Shown in pieces: positions 6,701 to 30,776 of a stretch of DNA of 33,074 nt. The notes beneath the pieces were generated by a model that saw only the letters and a list, made by a program, of their open reading frames with translations, was not told where the DNA came from and did no database searches. Made by a program: the position numbers and the translations under genes. This stretch comes from Verrucomicrobiota bacterium (GTDB lineage: Bacteria > Verrucomicrobiota > Verrucomicrobiia > Limisphaerales > UBA1096). Position 1 is the first letter of the stretch; every line of letters begins with the position of its first letter. The DNA is taken from contig JASLKI010000311.1 of NCBI GenBank assembly GCA_030747575.1, positions 1-33,074 of the forward strand, read 5' to 3'.

Positions 6701-7166
6701 CAACCTTCACGAAGGCGAAGACGATCCTCGCTATGGAATAGAAATCTATTTCAATGACGTAATGGTTCAGGAGGAGATTGTGATACGACCTGATGATTTG
6801 GGCAACAAGTTCACCACCGAGCCGTTTACTTTAGCCAGCGTGAACGCTGAACTGGGCCCTGGCCCGGATAACATCGTTAACCTTAGAGGAGTGAACTACA
6901 ACGCGGAAGGTGGCGGGAATTGGATGGGTATCGATTACGTCCAAATAGGCCCATTTGAGGACACCCCGCCTGCATTGCCGCCTGAATTCCTGCAACCCGT
7001 TGTGGGCAATGGCCAGTTGACCCTTTCCTGGAGCGGCAGCGGCAACCTCGAGTGGGCCCCTGAGGTTACTGGCCCCTGGACAGCCGTTACTCCCATTCCC
7101 ACCACTCCGTACTCGGAAAACTTCAGCGTGGCTGACCAGCGCTTTTATCGCCTTCGAAAGCCTTAG
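3789..7166 (+). CDS. Large secreted protein with five tandem repeats of an unassigned ~203-215-aa domain plus a C-terminal ~60-aa module ending RFYRLRKP
   Basis: 1125-aa ORF with signal-peptide-like N-terminus (alternative start ATG 3807, MNKIINRTLICCSLLLGSSTYSNAQ). Every repeat shows W.VG.DD.GWP..GGGAN..FVQE, DDDYYFAG, NGDYEPVG, EEAAERAFAG, LRYHFNLP, DPRYG.EVYFN and GGG.WMGIDY.QL. Confidence 0.9.
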   Translation: MLNLLRMNKIINRTLICCSLLLGSSTYSNAQELLWTVGLDDNGWPAGWDGGAEASFVQENGEINPLPGSPFSESIARGADNDYYFAGEYETVIDGNGDYEPIGLVDFDEEAAERAFAGGDLDLRYHFNLPDTLEPTSLLSVTFDAYNLDTRPADPRFGVEVYFNGVLVQPEILIRGAQLDEDFKTLQFTVESVNAEVGEGFDNIVSLRGTSYNSDGGGSWMGIDYIQLDHETERDDRPLANTIPAAVLPWAVGLDDDGWPEGDGGGANATFVQEKGVNELPGNPANPEVAQQGDDDYYFAGFYSEVIPANGDYEPVGLVPNNEEAAERAFAGADNELRYHFNLPNTLQADDKLEVTFDAYNLDTNGTDPRYGVEVYMNGVLVQPEIVIRDGQLNTAITTPEFTLESVGAMIGSGFDNIVTLKGVNYSAEGGGSWMGIDYIQLNPAIPTPELPWVVGMNDDGWPTGDGGGANASFVQENGTVNDLPGVPDSPEVDKEADNDYYFAGVFSTVIDGNGDYEPVGAVRVNEEAAERAFAGEDNELRYHFNLPPSLQPTDQLAVNFEALNLQDDEWDPRYGVEVYFNNVKVQSEIVIYIDELNQTISTSPFTVEEVNAQVGLGFDNIVSLRGINYSEDDGGNWMGIDYVQLIQVLPAPFPWSVGKDDNGWPVGDGGGANATFVQETGTNDLPGNPASPETNQQADDDYYFAGEYTKVIENNGDYEPVGSVLVNEEAAERAFAGIDNDLRYHFNLPASLKSDDQLMITFDANNLHNDADDPQYGIEVYFNNELVQEEIVIYPEDLDTDFTTLPFTLESVNAEVGPGFDNIITLKGINYNEDGGGNWMGIDYVSLDPMPEPVFPLAIGKDDDGWPVGDGGGANTSFVQETGTNDLPGNPASPEVAQQADDDYYFAGVYTKPLVEDEWVGEYDPVGIVPKNEEAAERAFAGIDNNLRYHFNLPATLDLTDEITVSFDANNLHEGEDDPRYGIEIYFNDVMVQEEIVIRPDDLGNKFTTEPFTLASVNAELGPGPDNIVNLRGVNYNAEGGGNWMGIDYVQIGPFEDTPPALPPEFLQPVVGNGQLTLSWSGSGNLEWAPEVTGPWTAVTPIPTTPYSENFSVADQRFYRLRKP
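3891..6947 (+). repeat. Five in-frame tandem coding repeats
   Basis: Equivalent Trp/Leu codons at 3891, 4536, 5145, 5754 and 6360, giving periods of 645, 609, 609 and 606 nt. The last unit ends about 6947. Copies are diverged at the DNA level and are not identical. Confidence 0.9.
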
Positions 7167-9007: not shown

Positions 9008-9039
9008 ATGTTTGGATGCGGAAAGGGGGCTGGCAACAG

Positions 9040-9117
9040 CTACTTCCCTTCAGCTTTCAATTCTTCACCCGTCTTGCCGCCGTGTTTGCGGAGGAGGTCT
9101 TCGGTTTCTTTTCTCAT
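9040..9117 (-). pseudogene. Tail-only fragment (25 codons: MRKETEDLLRKHGGKTGEELKAEGK)
   Basis: Near-exact copy of the family tail element with stop TAG at 9040-9042. No leader or cargo is attached. It sits between the AT-rich plus-strand block and the minus-strand array. Confidence 0.6.
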
Positions 9118-9141
9118 AGGTCTGAGTTGGTCATAATATCG

Positions 9142-9489
9142 TCAATCCCACCACCAGTAGAGATAACCCTCGGGAGCAAGCTGCATCAGTCCGTAGCACA
9201 CTGGTAACGACACTAAATGCACCATGAAATAGACAACCAGATGTCGCCAGCGAGAGACAAGTAGACATACCAGAATAATTGCAGGCACTACAAAAATGGT
9301 AAAAAGCAACAAACACGTAATGTAAGCACCTTGAATTTGATCATGCATAAGCAACGCCGGAGGAAACCCATGCGTTCCAATACTCTCGGGCCACCCATCT
9401 AAACTTTTGTGCATGTGAATTGCTAAGGAGTAAAATAGTAATAGTGCCAACAAGTAAGGCAGGATTGAGATAGCAATACCTGCTTTCAT
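9142..9489 (-). CDS. Small integral membrane protein (hypothetical)
   Basis: 115-aa ORF with 3-4 hydrophobic helices. Its ATG overlaps the upstream stop as ATGA (9486-9489), directly after a tail element. Confidence 0.6.
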   Translation of the reverse strand: MKAGIAISILPYLLALLLFYSLAIHMHKSLDGWPESIGTHGFPPALLMHDQIQGAYITCLLLFTIFVVPAIILVCLLVSRWRHLVVYFMVHLVSLPVCYGLMQLAPEGYLYWWWD

Positions 9490-9935
9490 TTCCCTTCAGC
9501 TTTTAAGCCTTCTCCAAGAACTCGTAGATTCTTTTCCACCGCGCTGGTTTCACCCTTTCTTCTTTTAGCAATTATGCCATCAATACTCTGAACAGTTGAA
9601 TCCATATCTATAATTTCAGCACTATTACTGTTATCACCAAGAATTATTGCAAGATTGCTATTTAGATTTTGGGTGTAGTAACCAAATTCTTGTTTAACTA
9701 TTTTCCCATTTATATTTCCTTTGAATAAGCCGCCACCTTCTTGTTTTGATTTAAAACTAAATACTTTAAACACACCCCCATCTAGTCGATCAATTAGCAA
9801 TTGCTGTCCTACTACTGTTATTTCGATCTCCTGCCAAACATTTGTTCCGCTGTTTGCTATTGTTATTTTATTTTTTGAACACCCAAGCAGCACCGCGGTT
9901 GCGATTGTTGTGAGTAGGAGGTGTTTCATTTTCAT
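9486..9935 (-). CDS. Small lipoprotein (hypothetical) with family leader, AT-rich core and degenerate family tail
   Basis: N-terminus MK-MKHLLLTTIATAVLLGCS (lipobox); the second ATG at 9929 is the canonical leader start. C-terminus ..GEGLKAEGK-stop. Confidence 0.75.
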   Translation of the reverse strand: MKMKHLLLTTIATAVLLGCSKNKITIANSGTNVWQEIEITVVGQQLLIDRLDGGVFKVFSFKSKQEGGGLFKGNINGKIVKQEFGYYTQNLNSNLAIILGDNSNSAEIIDMDSTVQSIDGIIAKRRKGETSAVEKNLRVLGEGLKAEGK

Positions 9936-9993
9936 TCAACTTTCAATTCTTCACCCGTCTTGCCGCCGTGCTTGCGGAGGAGGTCGGCGATTT
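9884..9993 (-). repeat. Tail-leader junction element (tail of 9932..10489 plus leader of 9486..9935)
   Basis: Minus-strand sense ..ctcctccgcaagcacggcggcaagacgggtgaagaattgaaagttgaATGAaaATGaaacacctcctactcacaacaatcgca.. Confidence 0.9.
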
Positions 9994-10489
9994 CATTGAG
10001 TGAACGCGAAAGCGCTGGAGAAAAAGCATTCTGGAATTTAATTAAAGCATTCGCCGAATCTAGCGGTGTACCGAAAATATCATCCTTCGCATTCACATCC
10101 GCACCTTTGGTGATTAGCAGTTCAGCCATTTCGGGACGAGGGGGATCAATCGCCCACACTAGGGGTGTTTCCTTAGATGGTCCATTCACATTCACATCCG
10201 CACCTTCGGAGATTAGCAGTTCAGCGATTTCCTTATGGCCTTCTCGAACCGCCCAATGCAATGGAGTTCTTCTAGCTATATCCGTCATATTCACATCCCC
10301 GCCAGCATCCAAGTACTGTTTGACCAATTCAATATTTCCGTCAATGGCAGCGTCGTGAATTGAGATGTCTGGCACTTTGGCTGCCGGCGGTTCAGCTGGT
10401 TTCGCTTCTGGTTCAGGAGCCGACTGCTGCGTTTTACCACACCCCACCAGAAGCACGGCTGCGATTGTTGTGAGTAGGAGGTGTTTCAT
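9932..10489 (-). CDS. Ankyrin-repeat lipoprotein (canonical leader + tail family member)
   Basis: MKHLLLTTIAAVLLVGCGK, then ANK repeats (TPLHWAVREGHKEIAELLISEGADVN..), ending IADLLRKHGGKTGEELKVE-stop. ATGA overlap with the next gene at 9932-9935. Confidence 0.9.
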   Translation of the reverse strand: MKHLLLTTIAAVLLVGCGKTQQSAPEPEAKPAEPPAAKVPDISIHDAAIDGNIELVKQYLDAGGDVNMTDIARRTPLHWAVREGHKEIAELLISEGADVNVNGPSKETPLVWAIDPPRPEMAELLITKGADVNAKDDIFGTPLDSANALIKFQNAFSPALSRSLNEIADLLRKHGGKTGEELKVE

Positions 10490-10528
10490 TTCTCTTCAGC
10501 TTTCAATTCTTCACCCGCCTTGCCGCAA
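10441..10528 (-). repeat. Tail remnant (untranslated) fused to the leader of 9932..10489
   Basis: Minus-strand sense ttgcggcaaggcgggtgaagaattgaaagctgaagagaaATGAaacacctcctactc.. The remnant lies after the stop of the PQQ-like gene and lacks the LLRKH part. Confidence 0.85.
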
Positions 10529-10542
10529 GTCATCGAGTTCTA

Positions 10543-11835
10543 CTACTGCGCCTCGATGCGATACAAATGCCCGCCCGTGCGCATGATGAAAGCATCACCA
10601 TCGACGGCGGGCGTCGCCATGAACGGCTGCCTAGCCAGAGCATTACTGGCCATGACCTGAAGTTTGCGAGTTGGCCGAATGACTGTGGTAAGGCCTTCCT
10701 CGTTAAACAGGTAAATCCGCCCCTCTGCGTAGATGGGCGACGCCGAGTAAACGCCCTTCAGACGTTCCTTCCAGACGACCTCGCCGGTCTTAGCCTCAAG
10801 ACAGCTCGCGATACCGCCACGGTTCACGACAAACAACAAATCGCCTACCAGCAACGGAGAACAACGTTGTGGCATGCTGCGGAACGACTTCCATTCAATA
10901 TGCGTGTCGGTTACATCGCCTTTGCCGTTGAGCCGAATGGCCCACAGTTCCGGCCGGTCCCGATCCACCGTGGCAAACACCAACCCGTGGCCGGATACAG
11001 GGCGCGGTGCCACCGACCAGCCTCGATGCCGTACGTACCACAGTTCCTTGCCTGTTTTCGGATCGTAGGCGTAAAGACCGCGGCCAGCAGGGCTTACGAG
11101 TTGCTGGCCTTGACCTCTCGGCACCAGCGCCGGCATACAATAGGCCTTTCGGTGATGAACGGGAAACTTGGAATACTCGAGCGATCGCAGCGTTTTCCAA
11201 GCCGTCTTACCAGTGGTCTTGTCGAGAGCGATGATGTATTGCACATCCCGACCATCCACGTGAACCACCGCCTTGTCCCCGACGAGTGTTGGCGAACTAG
11301 CTGGCCCGGCTCCCGCCTCATGGTCGCAATTCAAATCACGTCGCTTCCACAACACATCTCCGGTTTCAGTGTCTAGGCAAGCCGTGCCATAAGTGCCGAA
11401 GTGCAGTATTACCCTACGTTCATCTATCACGGGCGTGGGAGTTGCGTAGGTGTTGTCTTTGGTGATCCTTATTGGTTTAGCCACATCGAACAAATGCAGA
11501 TCATAAACTATCTTGCCGGTTACCTTATCTAGACAGACCGCGAACAATTTCCGCCCGTCAGCTGTGGCAGTGGTAAGCCAAATTTGCCTCCCCCAAATCA
11601 CCGGGGATGACCAGCCCCGATCGTGGATAGGGGTTTTCCAAGTGACGTTTTCTGCCTCCGACCACTTCAACAGAAGATTAGTTGATGTCGTATGACCGTC
11701 ACCGCTTGGACCTCGAAATTGCCACCAATTGTGCTCAGCTGAAGCCAAACCAATCACAAGAAAAAAAAATGCAAAACAAACGATGGACTTGTCTTTAATA
11801 TGCGTTTTTTTAAGGAATTTAATCTCTTTTTTCAC
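10543..11835 (-). CDS. PQQ-like (BamB-like) beta-propeller repeat protein, secreted
   Basis: HNWWQFRGPSGDGH.., repeated ..P.V.....Y....DG.L.A.D..TGK..W propeller motifs. Own signal peptide KSIVCFAFFFLVIGLASA. Start set at GTG 11835; the listed start at 11886 runs into the orphan-leader region in another frame, so the start is uncertain. Confidence 0.8.
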   Translation of the reverse strand: MKKEIKFLKKTHIKDKSIVCFAFFFLVIGLASAEHNWWQFRGPSGDGHTTSTNLLLKWSEAENVTWKTPIHDRGWSSPVIWGRQIWLTTATADGRKLFAVCLDKVTGKIVYDLHLFDVAKPIRITKDNTYATPTPVIDERRVILHFGTYGTACLDTETGDVLWKRRDLNCDHEAGAGPASSPTLVGDKAVVHVDGRDVQYIIALDKTTGKTAWKTLRSLEYSKFPVHHRKAYCMPALVPRGQGQQLVSPAGRGLYAYDPKTGKELWYVRHRGWSVAPRPVSGHGLVFATVDRDRPELWAIRLNGKGDVTDTHIEWKSFRSMPQRCSPLLVGDLLFVVNRGGIASCLEAKTGEVVWKERLKGVYSASPIYAEGRIYLFNEEGLTTVIRPTRKLQVMASNALARQPFMATPAVDGDAFIMRTGGHLYRIEAQ

Positions 11836-11933
11836 TAAACTGCAACTTGATGAGTTGAGATGTCTGGCGACTGCGACTCTCCACACCCCGCCAGCACCAC
11901 GGCTGCGATTGTTGTGAGTAGGAGGTGTTTCAT
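11835..11933 (-). pseudogene. Orphan leader plus ankyrin N-terminal fragment (MKHLLLTTIAAVVLAGCGESQSPDISTHQVAV-stop)
   Basis: Exact 30-nt leader copy starting at ATG 11933. SPDISTHQ resembles the VPDISIHDAA start of the ankyrin protein at 9932..10489. It ends at TAG 11835-11837, which overlaps the GTG of the PQQ-like ORF (TAGTG). Confidence 0.6.
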
Positions 11934-12005
11934 TTCAATTCTGCTGTTAATTAGCGGTGCTGGCAGTGCCACCCAAGTGTGCCATGAGAAGATGGAAAAT
12001 AACGG

Positions 12006-12296
12006 CTAATACACTTGGCTTTGATAAAGAAACTCTGGAGGTGACTCAAGGAAGTCGGAGACAAACTCTTGGAGCAAGCCGCCTTCCTCTCTCCAAGCCA
12101 CATACTTTTTATGTGCTTCAATGGAAGCCCACTCTCCATAAACCATCATCGTGGAGTCATCTGGACTCCCCGCGACACGAATGGAATCACAACCTTCAAA
12201 GGAGGCAGTGTCAGGAATATGTTTTTGCATAAATGCTACAGCTTCCTCGTACTTACCCGGTTGAATCTTCATTTTTACAATAGCAATTTTAGACAT
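12006..12296 (-). CDS. Antibiotic-biosynthesis-monooxygenase (ABM) domain protein
   Basis: 96-aa ORF of typical ABM length, with the pattern ..FEGC....V......MMVYGEWASIEAHKKY.. Confidence 0.8.
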   Translation of the reverse strand: MSKIAIVKMKIQPGKYEEAVAFMQKHIPDTASFEGCDSIRVAGSPDDSTMMVYGEWASIEAHKKYVAWREEGGLLQEFVSDFLESPPEFLYQSQVY

Positions 12297-12318
12297 AAAG
12301 CGAGAACATCAGAGTTGC

Positions 12319-12405
12319 GCCTAACCGTCAAGCGGTCAGAAAAAAGAGTCGGTCTAACAGTTGCCTCCGAACAACAACCCTGTGGCGTTCAAGTGGTTGT
12401 TTAGC
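12319..12405 (-). repeat. Intergenic repeat, copy A (family A/B/C), with GTTAGAC and GTTAGGC motifs
   Basis: Plus-strand taacagttgcctccgaacaacaaccctgtggcgttcaagtggt aligns with 16157-16197 (taacggttgccgccgaac---aaccctacggcgttcaagcggt). Minus-strand sense reads GCTAAAC..(40 nt)..GTTAGAC, and a second GTTAGGC lies 27 nt downstream. Confidence 0.7.
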
Positions 12406-12503
12406 TGATGGGAGCTTTGACTACTCGATATGGTTCTATTACTGGTAATTCCAGCTCTTTTCCATCCCCAATTTTTACTATGGAAATAGAGTACGTTTTC
12501 GGT

Positions 12504-13949
12504 TTATCTCTGGACCGGAAGTCGCGTGTACGGGCTGGAAATATAGGTGTTATACGTGCGGCCTGATCGAACGATTCTTTTGCGGTGATTACTAAAAAAG
12601 TCTATATGCTTATGTCCCGGTTTAATGGCTAAAGTCACACTCCAGGAATTCTGCGCGGGGTTCATTTTCATTGGGGCGGCCTGTTCCTTCGGAAAAAGTT
12701 CAGCGATATATGCCGCACTACCATCAGGACCCCGGTCATACATCCACCATATGCGCCCACTCTCAGCCTTTGCCCCCTTGGGGAAAGTCACCGTAATCTG
12801 AATCTTATCCTTATCCAATTTGGCTTGTACCGCTGGAGGAGACAATAACCCTTCTCCCCCAAAAAAGTGATGGAGTAAGAATACCGATTTATTCTGTTCA
12901 TCGCGTTCAGCCGCTGGATGAGGTTCACGGATCCCATGACCTGAATTAGCTTTAAGGTAAATTGGAATTTGGGGGTAATGTTTCCCGCCCCATGCCAGAT
13001 CAAACGCCACAAAGTCATGGGTGCCCGGGTGAAAAAACAAATCGACACTCCGCTCCTTTAGAGTCTTCAGATGTCGAGAAACAAAAATGTGATCGGCCAT
13101 CTCTCCCGCAATCTTCTGCAAATCCTCCCACTTCTTCCCCGCAGCCAGAGCCTGGCGGTTATAGACCGGCCCAAAGGTGCCGCCCAAAAAGAAGTGATTC
13201 ATAATGCGCTCGGTGTTTACAGATTCACCGCGTGCCCTCAGTTTGACCGCATAAGTCTCATTCGCCCGGCGCAAATCTGACCACACCTTGGGATCACACA
13301 GGCGCAGGGGTGAATCCCAAATAGGGGACACACTCGCATGCAGGGCACTCAATCGCTTGTCTTCAATCAGGGTCACCGAAGGTGAGGCACCATTCTTAGA
13401 GCCGCCTGAGGCAGCGACCTTACCCTTTTCAAAATGATCCTTCTCTGCGTAAGCCGTCGTGATTGCTCGCATTAAGGTGGCCGGCCAGCCCCAGTACTGG
13501 ATGGAATAATGAGGATTGAGTGTCTCAACAAAACGCCGGTCGGCCAATCGACCCAGTTCACCCTGACCGGATACTTGCAATACCTGCACCACCGTTTGCA
13601 CCAGACCGACGCCTCCTTCAAGTAAGGTTCGATCCACCCCGCGAGGCTGCAAATCCTTTTGGAACTGGCCCGGATTGTGACCGCCAGTCAGGTGGAAACC
13701 CTTGGCCTTGCGGTTGGTCGGCACAACCATCCGCACCGGCACGCGGTATTCCTTTCCCGGCAGTAGCTCCCCCACCCGAATGGTGACCAATTTCTGTCGC
13801 GTGGACACTTCTCCCCTCACCACATGCCAGTCCTTGAGCACCTTCACCTCTAGGGTACTCGCGTCCAGCATTTCGGCCATATTAAAAAGGGGAGCTGACT
13901 GCAGAGGCAATAGCGCAACAAAAAAAACGATTAAGAACAGGTATTTCAT
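12504..13949 (-). CDS. Secreted hypothetical protein, possibly an alpha/beta-hydrolase-like PhoPQ-activated-pathogenicity-related family member
   Basis: 481-aa ORF with signal peptide MKYLFLIVFFVALLPLQSA. The block SGGSKNGASPSVTLIEDKRLSALHASVSPIWD resembles the GASKRGW..D.RV..i.P motif of that family, recalled from memory with low certainty. Its ATG is part of an ATGA directly after a tail remnant. Confidence 0.7.
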   Translation of the reverse strand: MKYLFLIVFFVALLPLQSAPLFNMAEMLDASTLEVKVLKDWHVVRGEVSTRQKLVTIRVGELLPGKEYRVPVRMVVPTNRKAKGFHLTGGHNPGQFQKDLQPRGVDRTLLEGGVGLVQTVVQVLQVSGQGELGRLADRRFVETLNPHYSIQYWGWPATLMRAITTAYAEKDHFEKGKVAASGGSKNGASPSVTLIEDKRLSALHASVSPIWDSPLRLCDPKVWSDLRRANETYAVKLRARGESVNTERIMNHFFLGGTFGPVYNRQALAAGKKWEDLQKIAGEMADHIFVSRHLKTLKERSVDLFFHPGTHDFVAFDLAWGGKHYPQIPIYLKANSGHGIREPHPAAERDEQNKSVFLLHHFFGGEGLLSPPAVQAKLDKDKIQITVTFPKGAKAESGRIWWMYDRGPDGSAAYIAELFPKEQAAPMKMNPAQNSWSVTLAIKPGHKHIDFFSNHRKRIVRSGRTYNTYISSPYTRLPVQR

Positions 13950-13976
13950 TTCCCTTCAGCTTTCAATTCTACACCC
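13946..13976 (-). repeat. 3' half of a tail element (untranslated)
   Basis: tcatttcccttcagctttcaattctacaccc has one mismatch to the canonical tail. It lies after the stop (13978-13980) of the ankyrin gene and supplies the ATGA start of the 12504..13949 gene. Confidence 0.9.
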
Positions 13977-13977
13977 A

Positions 13978-14847
13978 CTACTCAACCACCCTCACACGGT
14001 AGAACCATTGCGGGGGATCGTGATCTCTCTCTTCATCAAACCGAACCGAGGCGCCAGTCCCGGTGTAGGTCTTGATCACTTCCCAGTTTAGCAGATCAAG
14101 TGAATCCTGAACCTCGTAGACCTTTCCCTCCTTCGCATCAAAGCTGAATGCAAAGCGATTGTGCTGTATCAAGCGAGGCGTCAGTTGATGTTTGCGGAGG
14201 AGGTCGGCGATTTGCCTCTTTGCGACTTTGGCATCAGGCGAGTCCCATTCATATACCAATTCGGCAGTATCTAGCGGAGTTCGTCCAAAACCATCTTTTA
14301 CATTCACATTCGCACCATTCGCGATTAGCAGTTCAACGATTTCCTCGTGGCCTATACCAGCCGCCACATGCAATGGAGTCCCGTAATATCCACTCTCAGT
14401 ATTTAAATCCGCGCCTTTGATTATAAGCAATTCGACGATTTCCTTGTGACCTTCAAGGGCTGCATCATGCAAACTGGACTTGCCTGTAGAATCCTTTGAA
14501 TTCACATCGCTGCCATTTGAAATAAGTAGTTCGACGATTTCCCTGTGACCTTGCCTGGCTGCCGAATGTAAAGGCGTCCACCCTCCACCTCCCAACATGG
14601 TAACAGTCCTTGCATGCAAATCCGCACCTGCGGCAATCAACAACTCGACGATTTCCCCGTGACCTCCTTCAGCCGCACCATGCAAAGGAGTCGATCCACC
14701 TTCACTCTTCGCGTTCACATCCACGCCTCTGTCCAATTCCGCTTGGACGCCAGCAATGTCACCGCTCTTAGCAGCATAGTGAATCGGGTCGGCGAAGGCA
14801 GTTCTCACCAGCACTACGGCTGCGATTGTTGTGAGTAGTAGTTTCAT
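13978..14847 (-). CDS. Ankyrin-repeat protein with family leader and an extra C-terminal ~70-aa beta-rich module ending WFYRVRVVE
   Basis: Start moved to ATG 14847 (MKLLLTTIAAVVLV, a leader variant). Five to six ANK repeats (TPLHGAAEGGHGEIVELLIAAGADL..). IADLLRKH is followed by QLTPRLIQ..FYRVRVVE instead of GGKTGEELKAEGK. Confidence 0.85.
   Translation of the reverse strand: MKLLLTTIAAVVLVRTAFADPIHYAAKSGDIAGVQAELDRGVDVNAKSEGGSTPLHGAAEGGHGEIVELLIAAGADLHARTVTMLGGGGWTPLHSAARQGHREIVELLISNGSDVNSKDSTGKSSLHDAALEGHKEIVELLIIKGADLNTESGYYGTPLHVAAGIGHEEIVELLIANGANVNVKDGFGRTPLDTAELVYEWDSPDAKVAKRQIADLLRKHQLTPRLIQHNRFAFSFDAKEGKVYEVQDSLDLLNWEVIKTYTGTGASVRFDEERDHDPPQWFYRVRVVE
14192..14213 (-). repeat. 5' half of the same split tail element
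   Basis: ttgcggaggaggtcggcgattt is identical to 9972-9993. Confidence 0.85.
14806..14847 (-). repeat. Leader element copy (variant)
   Basis: Minus-strand sense atgaaactactactcacaacaatcgcagccgtagtgctggtg. Confidence 0.85.
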
Positions 14848-14905
14848 AGTCCTGACGTGCGTTAAATAAAATGGGGACCCTGAACCGGTATCGGCGGATT
14901 TAACT

Positions 14906-15097
14906 TTACCAACCAAAAACTGTGCCGACGATGATATAGACGGTTGATACTATAAAAATAATCGTCACGCACACCAGCATCACAGGTGCCTTCCGAGGTT
15001 TATAGCCTTCATTGACTGCTCCACATTTCGGACATTTTTCTAAATTAGTAGATACACCTCCACCGCAATCCTTACATTCTAAGATTAGTGTTTTCAT
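14906..15097 (-). CDS. Small zinc-ribbon protein with a C-terminal TM helix (hypothetical)
   Basis: CKDCGG..(9 aa)..CPKCG two-CxxC zinc ribbon, then the hydrophobic stretch VMLVCVTIIFIVSTVYIIVGTVF. AT-rich. Its ATG is part of an ATGA after an untranslated tail copy. Confidence 0.6.
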   Translation of the reverse strand: MKTLILECKDCGGGVSTNLEKCPKCGAVNEGYKPRKAPVMLVCVTIIFIVSTVYIIVGTVFGW

Positions 15098-15157
15098 CTC
15101 CCTTCAACTTTCAATTCTTCACCCGTCTTGCCGCCGTGTTTGCGGAGGAGGTTGGCG
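15094..15157 (-). repeat. Complete tail element, untranslated (out of frame and downstream of the esterase stop)
   Basis: Would read ANLLRKHGGKTGEELKVEGR-stop. The esterase stop (15158-15160) precedes it, and the frame offset (15158-15094=64) is not a multiple of 3. Confidence 0.9.
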
Positions 15158-16111
15158 CTACTTTTTCAAGTGGTGTATCAGGAAAGCCACATCGTCTTCG
15201 AACGGCAGTTGAGCTTGTGGAAATTTGAGGAATACATTCACGCCTTCCCGTCGCAGTTTCTTTTCCATGAAGATGCCAAAATTGACGTGGTGAATAGACC
15301 AGCCCCGGGCACGTTTGGGATCGCTGGGGATCGGATCGTCCGGATTCATGCCATAGCTCATGAAGGTGGGCGGGTCATCCGGGGTGATGTGATTGATGAC
15401 GGAGATTTCGTTGAGAAGGGCCCGCCGTTCGACAAAGGACAGGTCTTCCCTGCCCCCTTTACCGTGGAACTCTCTTTTGTAGCCCGGGATATTCTCGACC
15501 CACCAATTCATGTCCAGGGTCGATTGTCCGCCCCTGAGGGCCACCGCTTTGAGACGCGATGATTCCCGTGAGACCGGATCGGTGCTTTTCGGATTCGCAA
15601 AATCATTGCCCCAGGCGAGGTAGGCAACAAGCTGGGCGCCCGCCGATCCTCCATAGGCGGCAATGCAGTTTTTATCGATGCCCCAATCCTCCGCCTTGCT
15701 GCGGATGAACTGCAAGGCGCGAACGCAGTCTTCATGCGCAGCCGGAAAATCGGCATGCTTAAGAAAGCGGTACTCTACAGACGCATGGTGAATGCCGGCA
15801 TCGAGATATTGCCGGATTGCCTTGCCATTGACTTTGTCGTGCGAGCCTCCCTTGAAGCCGCCTCCGTGAATATAGACTATCAGGGGAGCTGGATCATCCA
15901 CGTTAGCCTTCCGGAAATCGATCACTTGGTTGGGGTGATCGCCGTAGGAAACATTTTCGTATGTAATCGACGGAGAGGGGGGCTTTTGCTGCGCTTGAAC
16001 AGTGAGGCCAGAGGTGTCTGCGATCAAAAATGCGGAGGAAAATAAAAGCGTTGAATAGAGGTGTTTTATTTGGAAGTCGGCAGCGATTGTTGTGAGTAGC
16101 ACTGATTTCAT
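15158..16111 (-). CDS. Alpha/beta-hydrolase esterase (HGGG-type carboxylesterase/lipase-like), secreted
   Basis: Oxyanion motif YIHGGGFKGG and nucleophile elbow GGSAGA (GxSxG). The N-terminus is a leader-derived MKSVLLTTIAA fused upstream of a second signal-like segment IKHLYSTLLFSSAFLIA. Confidence 0.85.
   Translation of the reverse strand: MKSVLLTTIAADFQIKHLYSTLLFSSAFLIADTSGLTVQAQQKPPSPSITYENVSYGDHPNQVIDFRKANVDDPAPLIVYIHGGGFKGGSHDKVNGKAIRQYLDAGIHHASVEYRFLKHADFPAAHEDCVRALQFIRSKAEDWGIDKNCIAAYGGSAGAQLVAYLAWGNDFANPKSTDPVSRESSRLKAVALRGGQSTLDMNWWVENIPGYKREFHGKGGREDLSFVERRALLNEISVINHITPDDPPTFMSYGMNPDDPIPSDPKRARGWSIHHVNFGIFMEKKLRREGVNVFLKFPQAQLPFEDDVAFLIHHLKK
16079..16111 (-). repeat. Leader element copy (variant)
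   Basis: Minus-strand sense atgaaatcagtgctactcacaacaatcgctgcc. Confidence 0.8.
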
Positions 16112-16142
16112 AGCGAGGGAACCGTCACCCCGATAAACTCTG

Positions 16143-16213
16143 TTTTCAAGGCGTTTTAACGGTTGCCGCCGAACAACCCTACGGCGTTCAAGCGGTGGAG
16201 TGGGTTGGTCTAG
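16143..16213 (-). repeat. Intergenic repeat, copy B (full length)
   Basis: Plus-strand ttttcaaggcgttttaacggttgccgccgaacaaccctacggcgttcaagcggtggagtgggttggtcta. Contains an imperfect hairpin, minus-strand sense CCGC-TT-GAAC..GTTC-G-GCGG. Confidence 0.8.
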
Positions 16214-16227
16214 TTGTCTTTCGAAGC

Positions 16228-16533
16228 CTAAGCGTCTTCCAGAATTTTCAGGGAGACGTCTTCTACCATGCCTTCTACCTTCGATTTGTACTCTAACATA
16301 TGCGGCGCAGTGAAATGAGCTTCAAGGTGAAGTAATGATTCCCATTTCTCAATAACCGTTACGACGTTTGCATTCGTTTCCTGGATGGGAATGTCGGTTT
16401 GGAAGTCCACCGTGGCGGAATATTCGATACACCCCTCTTCCTCCAGCACCTTGGGAACGTTCGTCTTGAATATTTCAATGAAGGCGTCGCGTTCGGAAGC
16501 TTCTACTGAAATGGATGCTATTACGTTTATCAT
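16228..16533 (-). CDS. Antibiotic-biosynthesis-monooxygenase (ABM) domain protein
   Basis: 101-aa ORF, ..EEGCIEY....D......VVTVIEKWESLLHLEAHFTAPHM... Strong AGGAGG lies 5 nt upstream of the ATG. Confidence 0.85.
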   Translation of the reverse strand: MINVIASISVEASERDAFIEIFKTNVPKVLEEEGCIEYSATVDFQTDIPIQETNANVVTVIEKWESLLHLEAHFTAPHMLEYKSKVEGMVEDVSLKILEDA

Positions 16534-16538
16534 TTTTA

Positions 16539-16544
16539 CCTCCT
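16539..16544 (-). promoter_or_regulatory. Shine-Dalgarno sequence of the ABM gene
   Basis: Plus-strand cctcct equals AGGAGG, 5 nt upstream of ATG 16533. Confidence 0.6.
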
Positions 16545-16584
16545 AAGCCTGTAAGAGAGTGAACACTCGCGGTCGAGTTGCCAT

Positions 16585-16626
16585 TTTTCAAGGCGTTTTA
16601 ACTGTTGCCGCCGAGGTGGGTTGGCT
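16585..16626 (-). repeat. Intergenic repeat, copy C (copy B with an internal ~27-nt deletion)
   Basis: ttttcaaggcgttttaactgttgccgccga has 1 mismatch over 30 nt to copy B. It then continues ggtgggttggcta, matching the distal end of copy B. Confidence 0.8.
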
Positions 16627-16662
16627 ACTTCCCTTCAGCTTTCAATTCTTCACCCGTCTTGC
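16625..16662 (-). repeat. Tail element copy (3' part only, translated in frame with the sulfatase)
   Basis: ctacttcccttcagctttcaattcttcacccgtcttgc is identical to 9040-9077. Confidence 0.9.
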
Positions 16663-18040
16663 GCGCTGCGCGTTTGCCACGTTTTCTCGGCGGCTCATTA
16701 ATCCACCATTCTGATGGCCCTTCTTTTTCAACCTCATCGTGTACCTTCAATAGCGCGGTTTTCATGAAGGCAAGCTTTTCGGGCATCTTGGACGCCAAAT
16801 CCTTTTCCTCCTTCCAATCCTCCTCGATCTTATAGAGCTGAAATTTCTCGAGGGCCCTATCCCCCACAATCTTCCACTCGCCAATACGCAGAGCCACGTG
16901 ATTGTCTGCCGGCGCCAAGTGGTTACGCCAGTAAAGCGGCACAGTCCGTTCCACCGGTTTACCGGCCAAAGCCGGCCGCATGTCCACCCCGTCAATCACC
17001 CGATCCTTGGGCAGGTCCGCACCAACAATGGCCAGTATGGTGGAGAAAAGGTCGGACCCAATCACCGGCACACTGCTCGTGGTCCCAGGCTTAATGTGGT
17101 TGGGCCAACGGGCAATACCCGGCACGCGAATACCTCCTTCATGACTCCAGCGCTTTCGTCCACGCAGGCCTCCAGTCGAACCGCGTGTACGGCCTTTGGT
17201 CCCCGCCCCCTCAGGTCCGTTATCCGAGGTAAAAAAGACGAAGGTATCCTCGGTCAAGCTCTGTTGATCGAGTTCTTTCATTAGCAAACCAAAGGCATGG
17301 TCCAACTGGGTGACATTCCCGTGGTGCTGCCGGATTCCCTCATCATCAATATCCGCGTAAGGCTTCATGAACTCAGGCGCCGACTCAATAGGTAGATGCG
17401 GTTCATGCGTCCAGACAGTGATAAAGAAAGGTTTGGACTTGTCCCTTTCCTTGCGGAGCCAGTTAATGGCTTCTTCAGCGGCAATGACTGCAGAAGCGCC
17501 TTTGATAACTCCAACGGCCTTGCCATTGCGTACGAAGTTTTTCGGATTAATATGATTGGGCGAAGCATTGTTTTGGGTTGCCAACCACCAGTCATAGCCG
17601 TGGCTATTGGGTTGGGGTTGACGCGGATCATTAAAGAACCCGTTCAGGTGCCACTTGCCGGCATGGCATGTCGTGTAGCCCTTTGATTTCAAGACCTCGG
17701 GAATGGTAATCTCACTGGTACGCAGGTGCACCTGGTGGCCCGAAGGAATCCAACGCCACACCCCGTTGCGGTAGGGGGTACGGCCTGTGAGAATGGAGGA
17801 ACGCGAAGGCGAACAAACCCCGCACGCCGCGTAACACTGGGTAAGCCGCACGCCTTCTTTTGCGAACTGGTCCAGGTTCGGCGTTTTAATCAAGGGATGT
17901 TCCTGAACACCCAAATCGCCCCAACCGAGGTCGTCGGTGAGAAAGATCACAAAATTAGGCGACTTCTCCTTGGCATTCAATTCAAGCGCAAACCCCACCA
18001 GCACCACGGCTGCGATTGTTGTTAGTAGGAGGTGTTTCAT
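16625..18040 (-). CDS. Arylsulfatase (formylglycine-dependent S1 sulfatase family) carrying family leader and short family tail
   Basis: FLTDDLGWGDLG and the CGVCSPSRSSILTGR (CxPxR) signature. N-terminus MKHLLLTTIAAVVLVG. C-terminus ..RKTGEELKAEGK-stop. Confidence 0.9.
   Translation of the reverse strand: MKHLLLTTIAAVVLVGFALELNAKEKSPNFVIFLTDDLGWGDLGVQEHPLIKTPNLDQFAKEGVRLTQCYAACGVCSPSRSSILTGRTPYRNGVWRWIPSGHQVHLRTSEITIPEVLKSKGYTTCHAGKWHLNGFFNDPRQPQPNSHGYDWWLATQNNASPNHINPKNFVRNGKAVGVIKGASAVIAAEEAINWLRKERDKSKPFFITVWTHEPHLPIESAPEFMKPYADIDDEGIRQHHGNVTQLDHAFGLLMKELDQQSLTEDTFVFFTSDNGPEGAGTKGRTRGSTGGLRGRKRWSHEGGIRVPGIARWPNHIKPGTTSSVPVIGSDLFSTILAIVGADLPKDRVIDGVDMRPALAGKPVERTVPLYWRNHLAPADNHVALRIGEWKIVGDRALEKFQLYKIEEDWKEEKDLASKMPEKLAFMKTALLKVHDEVEKEGPSEWWINEPPRKRGKRAARKTGEELKAEGK
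17993..18040 (-). repeat. Leader element copy
   Basis: Minus-strand sense atgaaacacctcctactaacaacaatcgcagccgtggtgctggtgggg, with one change relative to the 30-nt core. Confidence 0.9.
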
Positions 18041-18166
18041 GTCAGCGAAAGCTCAGCTTAATTGCGTATTATTTGCAATAGTTTTGAATGTGCATATGAA
18101 AATCTTCATGCAATACAAAAAAGGGCAGCATGCTCACGCTTAGTGGTCAAGCACCGTTGATTTGCG

Positions 18167-18194
18167 TTGACGATTTATTCAAAGTTGCTATGAA
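18167..18194 (+). promoter_or_regulatory. Possible sigma70-like promoter for the 18210..19118 gene
   Basis: TTGACG (18167-18172), a 16-nt spacer, then TATGAA (18189-18194). The ATG follows at 18210. Pattern match only. Confidence 0.3.
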
Positions 18195-18209
18195 CTTGTT
18201 CGGGTTTTT

Positions 18210-19118
18210 ATGAAGAAGCAATTACTGACAGTAATCATTACTAGTATGTTCTTTGGGTTGTCGGTGTTTGGCGCAAAGAACAAGGTCTTGAAGATTGGGA
18301 CGCGTCCAGAAAGTGTGACAAAGGGGTTCGGTGGTAAGTACTATGTCACCGTCATGAACTCGGCGGACACTGAAGGGGACGCCGTGATTAAAGTCCTTGA
18401 TGGCGACAAGTCGCGCGTATTCGCTAAGGGTATGGATGAGCCAAAGGGTATTGCGTTCACTGGTAAATATCTTGTCACTGCCGACCAGACCAAGGTTTTG
18501 AAAATTGACCGCAAGGGGAAGGTGTCGGTCTTAGTCGATAAAAAGAATTTTACGCGTAACGTGAGTTTCCTCAACGACGTCGCCTCATCGTCGGATCGTA
18601 AGAGTATCTTCGTCACTGATATGGGTGCCATTAGCATGATGTTCGATCCAGACAAGGATCGTACGCTTTGGCCCTTGGACAGCAAGCAAGCGAAAGAACT
18701 AACGGCGGAGGGTTGTGTTTATCAGATTACGCTCGACGGAAAGATTACCGATGCAGTTGCTCCGGGAAACAGCTCACTTCCGGGGCCAAATGGTGTCGGG
18801 CGAGCTGGGAAGAATGGGTTGCTTTTATGTGATTTTTTTACCGGCAATATTTTGCGTAAAACTGGAAAAGGGCAGTTAAAGGTAATTGCAAAGGGACTGC
18901 GAGGTGCCGACGCTATCAATACTGGTGGCAAGGGCGTCATTTATGTTTCGAGCTGGACGCAAGGAAAAGTTTGGAAACTAACTGAAAACGGGAAAAAGAG
19001 TGAAGTTATTCTAGAAGACCTATTGTCTGCTGCTGATTTTTTTGTCGATCTGAAGGCCAAGAAGTTGATCGTGCCGGATATGCTAGCAGGCACGCTAATA
19101 TTTGTTGATATCCAGTAG
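18210..19118 (+). CDS. Secreted beta-propeller protein (SMP-30/gluconolactonase/LRE-like or NHL-like)
   Basis: 302-aa ORF with signal peptide MKKQLLTVIITSMFFGLSVFG. Repeated blade-like segments (..PKGIAFTGKYLVTAD.., ..IFVTDMG.., ..PNGVG...GLLLCDF.., ..GVIYVSSW..). Lower GC than its neighbours. Function uncertain. Confidence 0.75.
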   Translation: MKKQLLTVIITSMFFGLSVFGAKNKVLKIGTRPESVTKGFGGKYYVTVMNSADTEGDAVIKVLDGDKSRVFAKGMDEPKGIAFTGKYLVTADQTKVLKIDRKGKVSVLVDKKNFTRNVSFLNDVASSSDRKSIFVTDMGAISMMFDPDKDRTLWPLDSKQAKELTAEGCVYQITLDGKITDAVAPGNSSLPGPNGVGRAGKNGLLLCDFFTGNILRKTGKGQLKVIAKGLRGADAINTGGKGVIYVSSWTQGKVWKLTENGKKSEVILEDLLSAADFFVDLKAKKLIVPDMLAGTLIFVDIQ

Positions 19119-19165
19119 GCAAGGCTGCTGTTAAACGCGCCGAAATTAAGATCATTGTAGCGCAT

Positions 19166-19303
19166 TCATTTCCCTTCAGCTTTCAATTCTTCACTAGTCT
19201 TGGCTCCGTGTTTGCGGAGGAGGTTGGCGGTTGCCAATACAGCCAACGGCGCGCGGTGGTCTTGATAAGTAGCATAATCCAGCCGGGTTTCGCCAACATT
19301 GCC
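19166..19303 (-). pseudogene. Ankyrin C-terminal fragment with a tail element
   Basis: ..GETRLDYATYQDHRAPLAVLATANLLRKHGAKTSEELKAEGK-stop parallels the last ANK repeat plus tail of 9932..10489. The N-terminal part of the listed 72-aa ORF overlaps a terminator hairpin and is probably not coding. Confidence 0.6.
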
Positions 19304-19331
19304 CCGTAGCCCCTTAACCTTTGAAAGAAAC

Positions 19332-19369
19332 AAAAAGCCCACAGTGGTCAACTGTGGGCCTTGTTTTTT
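19332..19369. terminator. Bidirectional intrinsic terminator
   Basis: Perfect 9-bp stem gcccacagt (19337-19345) / actgtgggc (19351-19359) with a 5-nt loop. Flanked by aaaaa upstream and cttgtttttt downstream. Lies 34 nt past the stop of the minus-strand gene 19393..19632. Confidence 0.8.
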
Positions 19370-19392
19370 GCCTTTAACGGCCAAAGCGTTAA

Positions 19393-19632
19393 TTAAGTAG
19401 GATTTTGGTCTTCAGCCTTCTTTTGGTCGGTGCACTCCTTATCACCACAGTCGGGTTTTGCGCCTTCATCGCAAGTGGCTTTCTCGTCGCACTCCTCTTT
19501 GGAAGCTGAACATTCCTCTTTGGAACCTGAACATTCGGATTCGGCTTTGGCCGAGGTGCTGCTGACGTAGTAGAATCCCGCACCCGTGACCGAAACCGCC
19601 GCAATTGCTATAAATGTAATTAGAGCCTTCAT
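19393..19632 (-). CDS. Small membrane-anchored or secreted Cys/Glu/Lys-rich protein (hypothetical)
   Basis: 79-aa ORF. N-terminal hydrophobic MKALITFIAIAAVSVTGAGFYYV, then ESECSGSKEECSASKEECDEKATCDEGAKPDCGDKECTD (7 Cys). A terminator follows. Confidence 0.65.
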   Translation of the reverse strand: MKALITFIAIAAVSVTGAGFYYVSSTSAKAESECSGSKEECSASKEECDEKATCDEGAKPDCGDKECTDQKKAEDQNPT

Positions 19633-19810
19633 CGCCGGAAAACTATCGTCTGCTATGTGTATTGCAAGACTATAAAGTGGCTACTGTGGGCCACATTTTT
19701 CGGCCTATTAGCGGTAATGTCAGCGCGCCTGGACAAGCACGTTGAGTTTTGTTCTGGCCAACCTCAGAATAGGCACAAAAAGAGGCACCACTAGATTTCG
19801 GTATAATGTT

Positions 19811-19868: not shown

Positions 19869-19955
19869 TGGTGCCCGCGGCAAGAGTTGAACTTGCACCC
19901 CATTGCTGGGACTTGAACCTGAATCAAGCGCGTCTACCAATTCCGCCACGCGGGC
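19869..19955 (-). tRNA. tRNA-Leu (anticodon CAG), CCA encoded
   Basis: Folded by hand. 7-bp acceptor stem GCCCGCG/CGCGGGC; D arm GCG-GAAUUGGUAGA-CGC; anticodon stem CUUGA/UCAAG with loop UUCAGGU; long variable arm CCCAGCAAUGGG; T arm GCAAG-UUCAACU-CUUGC; discriminator A plus CCA. Total 87 nt. Confidence 0.93.
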
Positions 19956-30316: not shown

Positions 30317-30326
30317 GGCTGATTCG

Positions 30327-30776
30327 TCAGGGGGAGAAAGTGCTCCCCGCCTTGCCGCCGTGCTTGCGCAGGAAGTCGGCGGTGTCGTTGTGCAACGTGC
30401 CAACAGCCCAATCCAGCGGCGTGCCCCGGTCGCTGTCCAGCGCGTTTACCTTCGCACCCGCCTTCAACAACAACCTCGTCGTCGGCGTGTCGCCCAGCTC
30501 CGCAGCCAGATGCAGCGGTGTTTTGTCGGCATTGTGTTTCACGTTCACATTGGCTCCGCTTCGCACCAACAAGCCGGTAATCTCCGGATGTTTGTTGTAG
30601 ATAGCGTAGTAGAGCGGCGTGCGTCCCAGTGCATCCCGCGCGTCTACATCCGCGCCTGACTCAATCTGCGACTGCACAGCAGCCGTGTCGCCGCTTTGGA
30701 CATCCTGCCAAACATTCGACGCTCCGCAGCCGGCTAATAGCACGACTACCACCATTACTGTACCGCAAACCTTCAA
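30327..30776 (-). CDS. Ankyrin-repeat lipoprotein (GC-rich diverged relative of the array family)
   Basis: MKVCGTVMVVVVLLAGCG lipobox and ANK repeats (TPLYYAIYNKHPEITGLLVRSGANVN, TPLHLAAELGDTPTTRLLLKAGAKVN). Ends TADFLRKHGGKAGSTFSP-stop. cttgccgccgtgcttgcg is identical to part of the tail element at 9959-9976. Confidence 0.85.
   Translation of the reverse strand: MKVCGTVMVVVVLLAGCGASNVWQDVQSGDTAAVQSQIESGADVDARDALGRTPLYYAIYNKHPEITGLLVRSGANVNVKHNADKTPLHLAAELGDTPTTRLLLKAGAKVNALDSDRGTPLDWAVGTLHNDTADFLRKHGGKAGSTFSP

Follow-up and report, generated by a model that had tools for sequence, protein, structure and literature searches.

A dispersed tail repeat of marine Verrucomicrobiota, apparently an undescribed cassette-junction system

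In Neisseria the Sma/Cla repeat of pilE/pilS, and in trypanosomes the 70-bp repeats together with the conserved 3' ends of the variant surface glycoprotein (VSG) genes, delimit conversion tracts that bring in different gene bodies. The conserved gene-end sequence of these systems is partly untranslated, and one surface protein is varied at an expression locus. In Borrelia hermsii, two homology sequences beside the unrelated vsp/vlp (vmp) genes act as the crossover points when these genes undergo gene conversion: the upstream homology sequence (UHS, 61-62 bp) reaches into the lipoprotein coding region and includes its start, and the downstream homology sequence (DHS) lies outside the gene (PMC6011951). 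The minimal mobile elements of Neisseria differ in gene content between conserved flanks even among closest relatives, through homologous recombination and with no mobility genes of their own (PMC3787668). Replacement flexible genomic islands of aquatic bacteria likewise change their gene content by homologous recombination at the flanks (PMC4033161). The present study concerns a stretch of 33,074 nucleotides (nt) from a Verrucomicrobiota bacterium (GCA_030747575.1, contig JASLKI010000311.1), hereafter the window, and a short repeat within it, termed the tail, of which a complete but untranslated copy (T5) follows an esterase gene. The tail repeat represents a real, repeat-mediated cassette-junction system that is apparently as yet undescribed; peptide-string and topic searches of the searchable literature returned no published description of it. 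The tail is probably a homology patch, where recombination and gene conversion shuffle gene cassettes and keep the untranslated copy conserved.

The tail behind the esterase and its family

The tail, the esterase, the next open reading frame (ORF) and the other features of the array all lie on the minus strand (Table 1). The esterase ORF ends in ...FLIHHLKK (DDVAFLIHHLKK), followed by TAG at 15160-15158. One base past this stop begins GCC AAC CTC CTC CGC AAA CAC GGC GGC AAG ACG GGT GAA GAA TTG AAA GTT GAA GGG AGA TGA (15156-15094), which in the +1 frame would read ANLLRKHGGKTGEELKVEGR and a stop; a start codon is absent from this frame, and a TGA precedes the tail by three codons. T5 is not translated. 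A preliminary description of the window had placed a complete untranslated tail here, after the esterase TAG and in another frame, and reading of the ORFs bears it out. The few differences it saw from the translated copy of the ankyrin gene 9932-10489 amount to about 5 of 63 positions, the two copies sharing a rare GTT variant whose T occurs in 1 of 135 family copies, and the remnants it listed behind the PQQ-like and ankyrin genes (T3 and T4) are both real. T5 matches the family consensus at 46 of 47 positions.

The junction is reproduced in independent material. Four assemblies that share the gene order of the window (L131-L134; identity 99.5-99.7% over as much as 9.4 kb) show no difference over the full 129 nt at the junction, a fifth (L135) matches it up to the contig end, and three more metagenome contigs (L137-L139) carry a tail identical to T5. 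The zinc-ribbon neighbour downstream of the esterase is also present in L132 and L137-L140. A list of 3108 esterase homologues was obtained, including proteins from Opitutales and Thalassotalea, and the C-termini of 18 were read; all 18 have the conserved FLIH(H/Q)L followed by 1-3 residues, mostly as ...FLIHHLKK and a stop, without a tail. Opitutales-type esterases lacking any tail retain the FLIH(H/Q)L ending.

Chance is excluded for the tail copies of the window, because the 16-nt tail core has 8 matches against 1.2 expected, a number reached by 0 of 100 shuffles; the window holds eight tail copies or remnants. Beyond the window, copies were sampled as exact matches to a 22-nt core in one-genome-per-species contigs, all relatives coming from short-read metagenome assemblies. 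At least 117 stretches were recovered, nearly all of the long matches belonging to genome bins of marine Verrucomicrobiota. The counts that follow are those among the matches listed. The long tail-bearing matches come from bins named Pedosphaera, Pedosphaerales, Limisphaerales or Verrucomicrobiae, and a single bin has 20 complete copies. The tail is a dispersed DNA repeat of about 65-70 nt, located at the boundaries of co-oriented gene cassettes. Conservation among 135 distinct copies reaches 70% or more between -30 and +30 relative to the core and falls to 30-50% beyond about -40, the 5' ends being ragged.

The copies stand both in and out of frame with the preceding gene. Of 120 assessable tails, 68 continue the frame of an ORF of 60 codons or more and 52 do not, with a complete 5' module in at least 31 of those 52. 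Four-fold degenerate third positions of the tail are about as conserved as first and second positions, and complete untranslated copies diverge from the consensus at 8.8% of positions, only slightly more than the translated ones (6.1%). TGA is found in all three frames of the tail, and ORFs of 500-580 codons terminate there in the 'wrong' frames, ending ...RRQDG or ...RRVKN before the stop. Non-ankyrin cargo is joined to the tail at variable points, for example ..AFKKE to TGEELKAEGK and ..AAR to KTGEELKAEGK.

Ankyrin-like sequence lies upstream of 43 in-frame copies, and ANK185 and ANK312 give strong Pfam Ank matches. Because ankyrin sequence precedes most in-frame copies, the tail is the native C-terminus of a large ankyrin-lipoprotein family, where it reads ...ADLLRKHGGKTGEELKAEGK and a stop; its LLRKHGG would represent helix 2 and the loop of the ankyrin repeat consensus. 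The ankyrin lipoproteins start with an equally repeated 'head', ATGAAACACCTCCTACTCACAACAATCGCAGCC (= MKHLLLTTIAAV...), of which 109 copies occur in the related loci. The sequence upstream of the head is unrelated in about half of them, for which reason the tail was rejected as an obligatory leader of head-type genes. The 3' module of the tail also exists in other alleles, which have a similar peptide pattern but different DNA: a second, ACCAAGAAGGAACTGGAAGCCGCTGGCAA (KTKKELEAAGK/N), in several bins (L008:2031, L016:7778, L028, L041, L095:7016, L097, L105:4031), and a third (KTDKELKADGD) after the esterase in L136 and L146. The second allele, with its like peptide and different DNA, points to peptide-level selection in translated copies and suggests that no single nucleotide motif is obligatory.

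Many contigs of 500-900 nt consist of little beyond a tail/head junction and are placed in bins of unrelated phyla (L004, L005, L009, L012, L017, L021, L029, L042 and others), labelled Pirellulales, Kiritimatiellia, Acidimicrobiales, Dehalococcoidia, Flavobacteriales and others. This pattern probably arises from assembly breaks at the repeat and mis-binning, a source of contamination in public bins.

Orthologous junctions and exchange within the tail

Orthologues of the esterase were reached by protein search and exact-protein look-ups, none being found among the first 117 tail-bearing genome loci. At 97% (L118), 81% (L119-L122) and 74% (L123, L124) amino acid identity, all have the stop, CGCC(A/C/G)... 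and then a tail out of frame; the distant esterase lineages P0011 and P0012 have no tail DNA downstream. Over the esterase lineages compared, the untranslated tails are 79-98% identical, against only about 55% for four-fold synonymous sites, and where the four-fold sites stand at 0.55-0.56 the tails stand at 0.79-0.96; the window and L123, for example, agree at 0.55 of four-fold synonymous sites and 0.94 of the untranslated tail. The junction is old, because the same out-of-frame stop and tail is common to lineages with saturated synonymous divergence, and the conservation of the tail exceeds the neutral rate. The reverse relation is also seen: L119 and L123 agree at 0.90 of four-fold sites, whereas their tails are only 0.79 identical, that of L119 having about 10 substitutions and that of L123 being near consensus.

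Other loci of the window add to this picture. The PQQ-like gene and its orthologue in L095, with four-fold sites at 0.54, are followed by the same tail remnant (T3), identical at 38 of 41 nt. At the T1 locus, orf115 and its counterpart in L024 share the stop-spacer-tail layout; T1 itself is near-perfect and has no downstream gene, and the L024 copy, which has one, shows decay of its 5' part. Where the ankyrin gene 13978-14916 has the truncated remnant T4, the L082 orthologue has a complete out-of-frame tail, and the L082 sulfatase orthologue (92% amino acid identity) enters its tail in the wrong frame (..AARRVKN, stop) whereas the window sulfatase does so in frame. Decaying orthologous tails are those of L119-122, L024 and L124, the last with a 1-nt deletion; the changes in the L119 tail make 6 codons non-synonymous and 3 synonymous. 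On these comparisons, the history of the tail sequence is decoupled from that of the flanking genes, copies decaying and then being restored. That some orthologous copies decay speaks for renewal by recombination in episodes and against a purifying selection that acts steadily on every one of them.

Exchange inside the tail can be followed at the level of strains. A metagenome scan with a pattern of the esterase end and junction gave 16 contigs, which were pooled with the earlier loci. Behind esterases of 95% or higher identity to that of the window, seven different downstream contexts occur, all joined within the tail: the zinc-ribbon gene; another tail allele (DLLRKHGDKTDKELKADGD, stop) with the intergenic element listed in Table 1 and another gene; a head-type lipoprotein; a small membrane protein; a truncated variant in which no gene start was found; continuation into an ankyrin domain; and another ankyrin lipoprotein. 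The 81% esterase clade has four further contexts (11 in all), again joined within the tail, and several contexts recur in at least two independent assemblies or samples. The joins fall at variable positions, at the 5' edge, in the middle or in the 3' part in different contigs. Some tails are mosaic: L149 and L150 combine the diagnostic decayed 5' half of L119 with a consensus 3' half and a new downstream gene, and L152 is the reverse mosaic, with a consensus-like 5' half and the TTA variant of L119 retained.

The co-occurring strain L136, whose esterase protein is exactly that of the window, has another tail allele after the esterase, and about 3 kb of the window (16678-19747), holding a small secreted gene, T7, a beta-propeller gene and the sulfatase, is replaced there by 61 nt between the tRNA-Leu flank and an ankyrin 3' remnant. 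The right-hand breakpoint of this insertion or deletion lies inside T6, because the tail of the L136 ankyrin remnant continues exactly as the sequence downstream of T6. L136 thus has a full tail at the T6 site and no sulfatase, its tRNA flank being joined via the tail directly to the segment of the ABM and esterase genes, a strain-level insertion/deletion difference of a tRNA-adjacent flexible island.

The 5' side of the esterase varies as well, with at least six upstream contexts and N-terminal variants (MKSVLLTTIAA, MKSILLTTIAA, MKHLLITTIAA, MKHILLTTIAA, MRDLFKTIAA, MKDLFKAIAA) that converge at ...ACAATCGCAGCC. The first 11 or so codons of the window esterase (MKSVLLTTIAA) are partly converted to head sequence, and the sulfatase N-terminus is MKPILVSIVAAVLLLG in L082 versus the head-type MKHLLLTTIAAVVLVG in the window. 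About 100 nt upstream of the esterase start, L145 and L148 contain a fragment resembling a tRNA 3' end (GGTTTCGAATCCCTCCCCTTCCGCCA), which may be an att-like remnant; ARAGORN found no complete tRNA upstream of the esterase in these two loci.

Explanations for the conservation of the tail

Searches for structure, enzymes and signals gave mostly negative results. Folds of the tail and of the tail-head junction, as RNA and as DNA, are no better than those of shuffles (z = -0.8 to +0.9); the purine-rich tail RNA has z = +0.7 to +0.9, and the DNA of the tail-head junction, folded on both strands, has z = +0.9 and +0.1 and no hairpin. There is no inverted repeat within the tail, nor are there terminal inverted repeats. 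The consensus RNA structure of the intergenic element near the esterase has 0 pairs, Rfam at gathering thresholds reports only the tRNA-Leu in the window, and the terminator scan lists none at the tail. A Pfam scan of 29 window ORFs found no integrase, transposase or reverse transcriptase family. The tail peptide has no NCBIfam match at E <= 1 and no curated sorting-domain (-CTERM type) model. Among viral contigs the tail core is present in one only, and carriage by phages is not supported.

One copy-specific feature was noted at T5. An inverted repeat of 13 nt (12 of 13 complementary; 15056-15068 and 15140-15152) links the 5' module of T5 to codons 9-13 of the zinc-ribbon ORF, whose start codon lies between the two arms. 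Folded as RNA, 15040-15165 gives a marginal result (-31.7 kcal/mol, z = -1.9), 9 of 200 shuffles being equally good, and the pairing could be a translational hairpin or chance.

If the tail is a homology patch, the following course of events may be proposed. The tail derives from the 3' end of ankyrin-repeat lipoprotein genes, where it encodes the last helix and a Lys/Glu-rich end, and now marks cassette boundaries in co-oriented arrays that behave as flexible islands, here beside tRNA-Leu, in marine Verrucomicrobiota of the Pedosphaerales/Limisphaerales type. Behind the esterase it would be a transcribed, non-coding spacer. Exchange with other copies inside the tail, by homologous recombination and short-tract gene conversion, would bring it back to a near-consensus sequence; the exchanges, within a genome or between co-occurring strains, would swap the downstream neighbour and overwrite parts of the tail, so that the untranslated copy would be conserved by repeated overwriting and not by production of a peptide. 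Heads and the third, intergenic element may be further short multi-copy homology patches. The three-frame stops of the tail would terminate any upstream ORF, and its purine-rich, unstructured, ATGA-ended 3' third may double as the start region of the next gene, a role that is plausible for the last 25-30 nt or so. Variable crossovers, together with the absence of a hairpin and of a recombinase in the window, point to general recombination, presumably with RecA-type enzymology, and the shuffling of cassettes may itself have adaptive value.

The preliminary description had argued that conservation without translation reflects selection or gene conversion acting on the DNA or RNA and not only on a peptide, and had proposed to compare untranslated with translated copies and to inspect orthologous loci. 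Both comparisons agree with maintenance at the DNA level: the untranslated tails behind the esterase, the PQQ-like gene and orf115 are far more similar than neutral sites, and the equally conserved third codon positions, the small excess divergence of complete untranslated copies and the mosaic tails with strain-level breakpoints inside them point the same way. Very recent cargo replacement, which it offered as an alternative, does not hold for the esterase-tail junction with its saturated synonymous divergence, and is partly true of the downstream neighbour, which changes within very short times. Clear decay of the untranslated copies at a neutral rate, which would have spoken against its view, is excluded, although some orthologous copies do decay. 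That T5 is a neutral leftover of a recent replacement of an ankyrin body by the esterase, with no ongoing process, is highly improbable; cargo does sit within ankyrin-gene remnants, such as the PQQ-like gene between an out-of-frame head/'PDISTH' fragment and a tail remnant, and some tails do decay, but the shared stop-CGCC-tail junction at saturated four-fold sites, the decoupling in L119 versus L123 and the mosaics do not fit. Fusion of the esterase to the tail has the least to commend it and is extremely unlikely. An A5 run lies just before the esterase stop (TTG AAA AAG TAG), and a +1 slip of tRNA-Lys on AAAAA, or the loss of one A by sequencing error, would yield ...HHLKSSANLLRKHGGKTGEELKVEGR and a stop, but readthrough in frame would give RQPPPQTRRQDG and a stop, not the tail; the 18 homologues read end without a tail extension, P0011 and P0012 without tail DNA, the tail ORF is not kept in L124 and L119, and other genes enter tails in either wrong frame. 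The frameshift or sequencing error that the preliminary description had allowed for at the junction is excluded by the native HHLKK end and the identical junction across assemblies. The A5 run was also considered as a programmed frameshift site and rejected, its two-frame product not being conserved in orthologues whose native end is HHLKK.

Purifying selection on the tail as a cis-acting DNA or RNA element, which might initiate or couple translation of the following gene or bind a regulator or small RNA common to a secreted-protein regulon, would account for a tail consensus that is identical in 6 genome bins, synonymous positions included. An ATG at +26 overlaps the tail stop (ATGA) in 70 of 135 copies, in equal fractions of in-frame and out-of-frame ones, truncated copies retain the 3' 30 nt or so beside starts, and a purine-rich RNA no more structured than shuffles is what an open start region would be expected to show. 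A start region, however, is limited to the last 25-30 nt or so and cannot explain the conservation in full, because the 5' module is equally conserved in untranslated copies and T1 is near-perfect with no downstream gene, whereas the L024 copy, which has one, is decayed in its 5' part. Copies also decay in L119-122 and L124, about half of the head-type genes start without an upstream tail, the second allele keeps the peptide pattern with different DNA, and AAGG-N3-ATG is a weak Shine-Dalgarno spacing compared with the GGAGG-N6-ATG of the ABM gene; selection of this kind is an unlikely explanation. A dedicated mobile or site-specific system, in which the tail (and head) would be an integron-like or MITE-like (miniature inverted-repeat transposable element) site served by a recombinase encoded elsewhere in the genome, is very unlikely. 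Co-oriented, tightly packed, unrelated cassettes beside a tRNA gene do resemble an integron array, junction sequences are uniform across genomes, and there is weak inverted similarity between the tail 5' module and the head 3' part. Against this stand 0 of 29 scanned ORFs with a match to an integrase, transposase or reverse transcriptase, the lack of a hairpin or inverted repeat, crossover points that vary along the tail, tails and heads that also occur separately and truncated at many points, and the presence of the core in only one contig among the viral ones.

Several points weigh against recombination and gene conversion at a homology patch as the whole account. The exact 22-nt pattern enriches the sample for consensus-like copies. 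About half of the tails abut a start codon at a fixed distance, so that part of the conservation could be functional. Genome-specific homogenisation was not detected, copies differing at 7.6 positions within bins and 8.1 between bins (312 of 2000 permutations); under neutral concerted evolution alone the bin consensuses would be expected to drift apart, and an identical consensus with no homogenisation within bins implies either frequent exchange between genomes or some nucleotide-level selection, and leaves the functional-element explanation in contention. The junction diversity comes from short-read assemblies, in which repeats can create chimeras. This concern is countered by a repeat shorter than the largest k-mers in use and by the recurrence of most contexts in independent samples.

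A bolder proposal is possible, if doubtful: that marine Verrucomicrobiota possess an integron-like cassette system independent of an integrase, in which short coding-derived 'linker' repeats, namely the tail (three-frame stops and an ATGA restart) and the head (start and lipoprotein signal peptide), together with the promoter-like element, are standardised recombination adapters. Selection for compatibility in recombination, or a drive of the kind seen in biased DNA uptake, would keep the adapters identical across species. If this were so, any gene caught between them would have its termination, restart and export provided, and could move freely among islands and among co-occurring strains.

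Other elements of the window and relation to known systems

The remaining elements of the array, which spans about 9030-19400, are listed with the junction in Table 1. The ORF 9486-9935 ends in a degenerate translated tail, its orthologue in L020 ending ..LGEELKAEGK.

Table 1. Tail, head and boundary elements of the window, all on the minus strand.
Feature	Position	Strand	Remarks
Tail copy T1	9040..9102	minus	Complete, untranslated; 39 nt past stop of ORF 9142-9489; array end; no start codon after
Degenerate translated tail (..LGEGLKAEGK, stop)	9486..9523	minus	End of ORF 9486-9935; stop overlaps ATG of next gene
Tail copy T2	9932..9988	minus	Translated end of ankyrin lipoprotein 9932-10489; GTT variant as in T5
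Tail remnant T3	10486..10528	minus	After 2 stop codons of PQQ-like gene 10543-11886; abuts ATG and head of next gene
Tail remnant T4	13946..13976	minus	After ankyrin gene 13978-14916; abuts ATG of ORF 12504-13949
Tail copy T5	15094..15157	minus	Complete, untranslated; +1 frame relative to esterase; 61-nt spacer from esterase stop to next ATG
Partial tail T6	16625..16663	minus	In-frame fusion to sulfatase 16625-18040 (..AARKTGEELKAEGK, stop)
Tail copy T7	19166..19228	minus	On ankyrin 3' fragment; no head or plausible start; just after strong terminator; probably untranslated
Downstream cassette: 63-amino-acid zinc-ribbon + transmembrane ORF	14906..15097	minus	ATG (15097) overlaps T5 TGA as ATGA
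Esterase cassette (BD-FAE / alpha-beta hydrolase)	15158..16111	minus	Pfam BD-FAE/Abhydrolase_3; native stop
Head repeat (ATGAAACACCTCCTACTCACAACAATCGCAGCC..., MKHLLLTTIAAVLLVGC lipoprotein signal peptide)	10438..10489	minus	
Further head copies	9885-9929, 14799-14850, 17989-18040	minus	
Head copy, out of frame	11882-11933	minus	Upstream of PQQ gene
Partial head copy	16078-16111	minus	
Conserved intergenic element (ACCAACCCACTCCACC...GGCGGCAACCGTTAAAACGCCTTGAAAAC...)	16112..16215	minus	Between ABM gene and esterase; left boundary of esterase cassette
Intergenic element, truncated copy	16540-16623	minus	
tRNA-Leu(CAG)	19869..19955	minus	Borders cassette array

A third conserved boundary module is the intergenic element of about 105 nt (AACTAAACCAACCCACTCCACCACTTGAACGCC..GGGTTGTT..GGCGGCAACAGTTAAAACGCCTTGAAAACTGCGCTCAACGGGATGACAGT..ATG), present in about 25 copies in related loci (e.g. 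L094, L098, L069), where a second head type (ATGAAATCACAACTGATCGCAATCGTCGCAGCC = MKSQLIAIVAAVVLVGC) mostly comes next; the element is found in divergent-promoter positions too. It looks promoter- or leader-like, to judge by TTGAAA-N17-GACAGT. The PQQ-like gene sits in the wreck of an ankyrin lipoprotein gene (11835-11972, minus), with an out-of-frame head and the start of an ankyrin N-terminus (MKHLLLTTIAAVVLAGCGESQSPDISTHQ.. and two stops, 'PDISTH') upstream and T3 downstream; its L095 orthologue has a prepilin-type fragment upstream instead of head and ankyrin sequence. Outside the array, the ankyrin gene 30327-30776 (minus) ends ..DFLRKHGGKAGSTFSP and a stop, with a GC-richer, diverged tail 5' module and no 3' module, and directly abuts or overlaps an MscS-type channel gene (29435-30403, minus); it offers a copy for comparison that is not part of an array. 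On the plus strand, the ORF 3789-7166 (1125 amino acids) has no convincing Pfam domains and contains 5 tandem repeats of about 610 nt (about 203 amino acids) at 63-77% nucleotide identity.

Flexible islands with sulfatases, esterases, binding proteins and further secreted functions may be assembled and rearranged in abundant, uncultured marine Verrucomicrobia with no need of integrases or transposases, by means of repeats of about 50-70 nt that stem from the ends of members of an expanded ankyrin-lipoprotein family. For metagenomics, tail repeats explain contig breaks in marine assemblies and probably also the short contigs placed in bins of unrelated phyla. For annotation, out-of-frame and untranslated tail and head sequence is to be expected and should not be 'repaired' as frameshifts. 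The system is also a natural test of how short homology and recombination maintain identity across species, the esterase cassette with its 11 downstream and at least 6 upstream contexts being a case in point.

The closest analogue is the UHS/DHS pair of B. hermsii. In both, unrelated gene bodies lie between repeated elements, and the upstream element extends over the beginning of a lipoprotein ORF; here that element is the head, with start codon and signal peptide inside it, and the tail is placed at or behind the 3' end. In both, too, breakpoints fall within the elements, as seen here in the 11 contexts, the mosaics and the L136 breakpoint in T6. Unlike in B. hermsii, no single expression site or silent archive is evident; most cassettes have their own start codons and some appear to be preceded by a promoter-like intergenic element; the cargo includes enzymes (esterase, sulfatase, PQQ-propeller, ABM) rather than one antigen family; the tail, unlike the DHS, is coding-derived, translated in over half of its copies and devoid of the DHS inverted repeat; and the setting is chromosomal islands of free-living marine bacteria instead of the linear plasmids of a pathogen. 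Compared with pilE/pilS and VSG, unrelated genes are shuffled here and no expression-site logic is seen.

With the minimal mobile elements of Neisseria and the replacement islands, the locus shares a content that differs among closest relatives and an absence of mobility genes inside. Their flanks are whole conserved single-copy genes at one locus, whereas those found here are repeats of 50-70 nt, many per genome, which in principle opens many sites to each cassette and lets arrays lengthen or shorten by recombination. Like integron arrays, the locus has co-oriented, compact, unrelated and mostly promoterless cassettes, a recurring short sequence and high turnover among strains. Unlike an integron, it has no IntI-type tyrosine recombinase among the 29 scanned window ORFs; the junction lacks the imperfect inverted repeat and single-strand hairpin (R''-L''...L'-R') of attC, and instead of the fixed attC crossover (G/TT of the R' core) its crossovers occur at variable positions in a sequence that is coding-derived and often translated. 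It differs from MITEs and from the palindromic elements (RPE) of Rickettsia in having no terminal inverted repeats or palindrome, and in its ragged 5' ends. A further difference from the known systems is that the junction combines three-frame stops with a restart.

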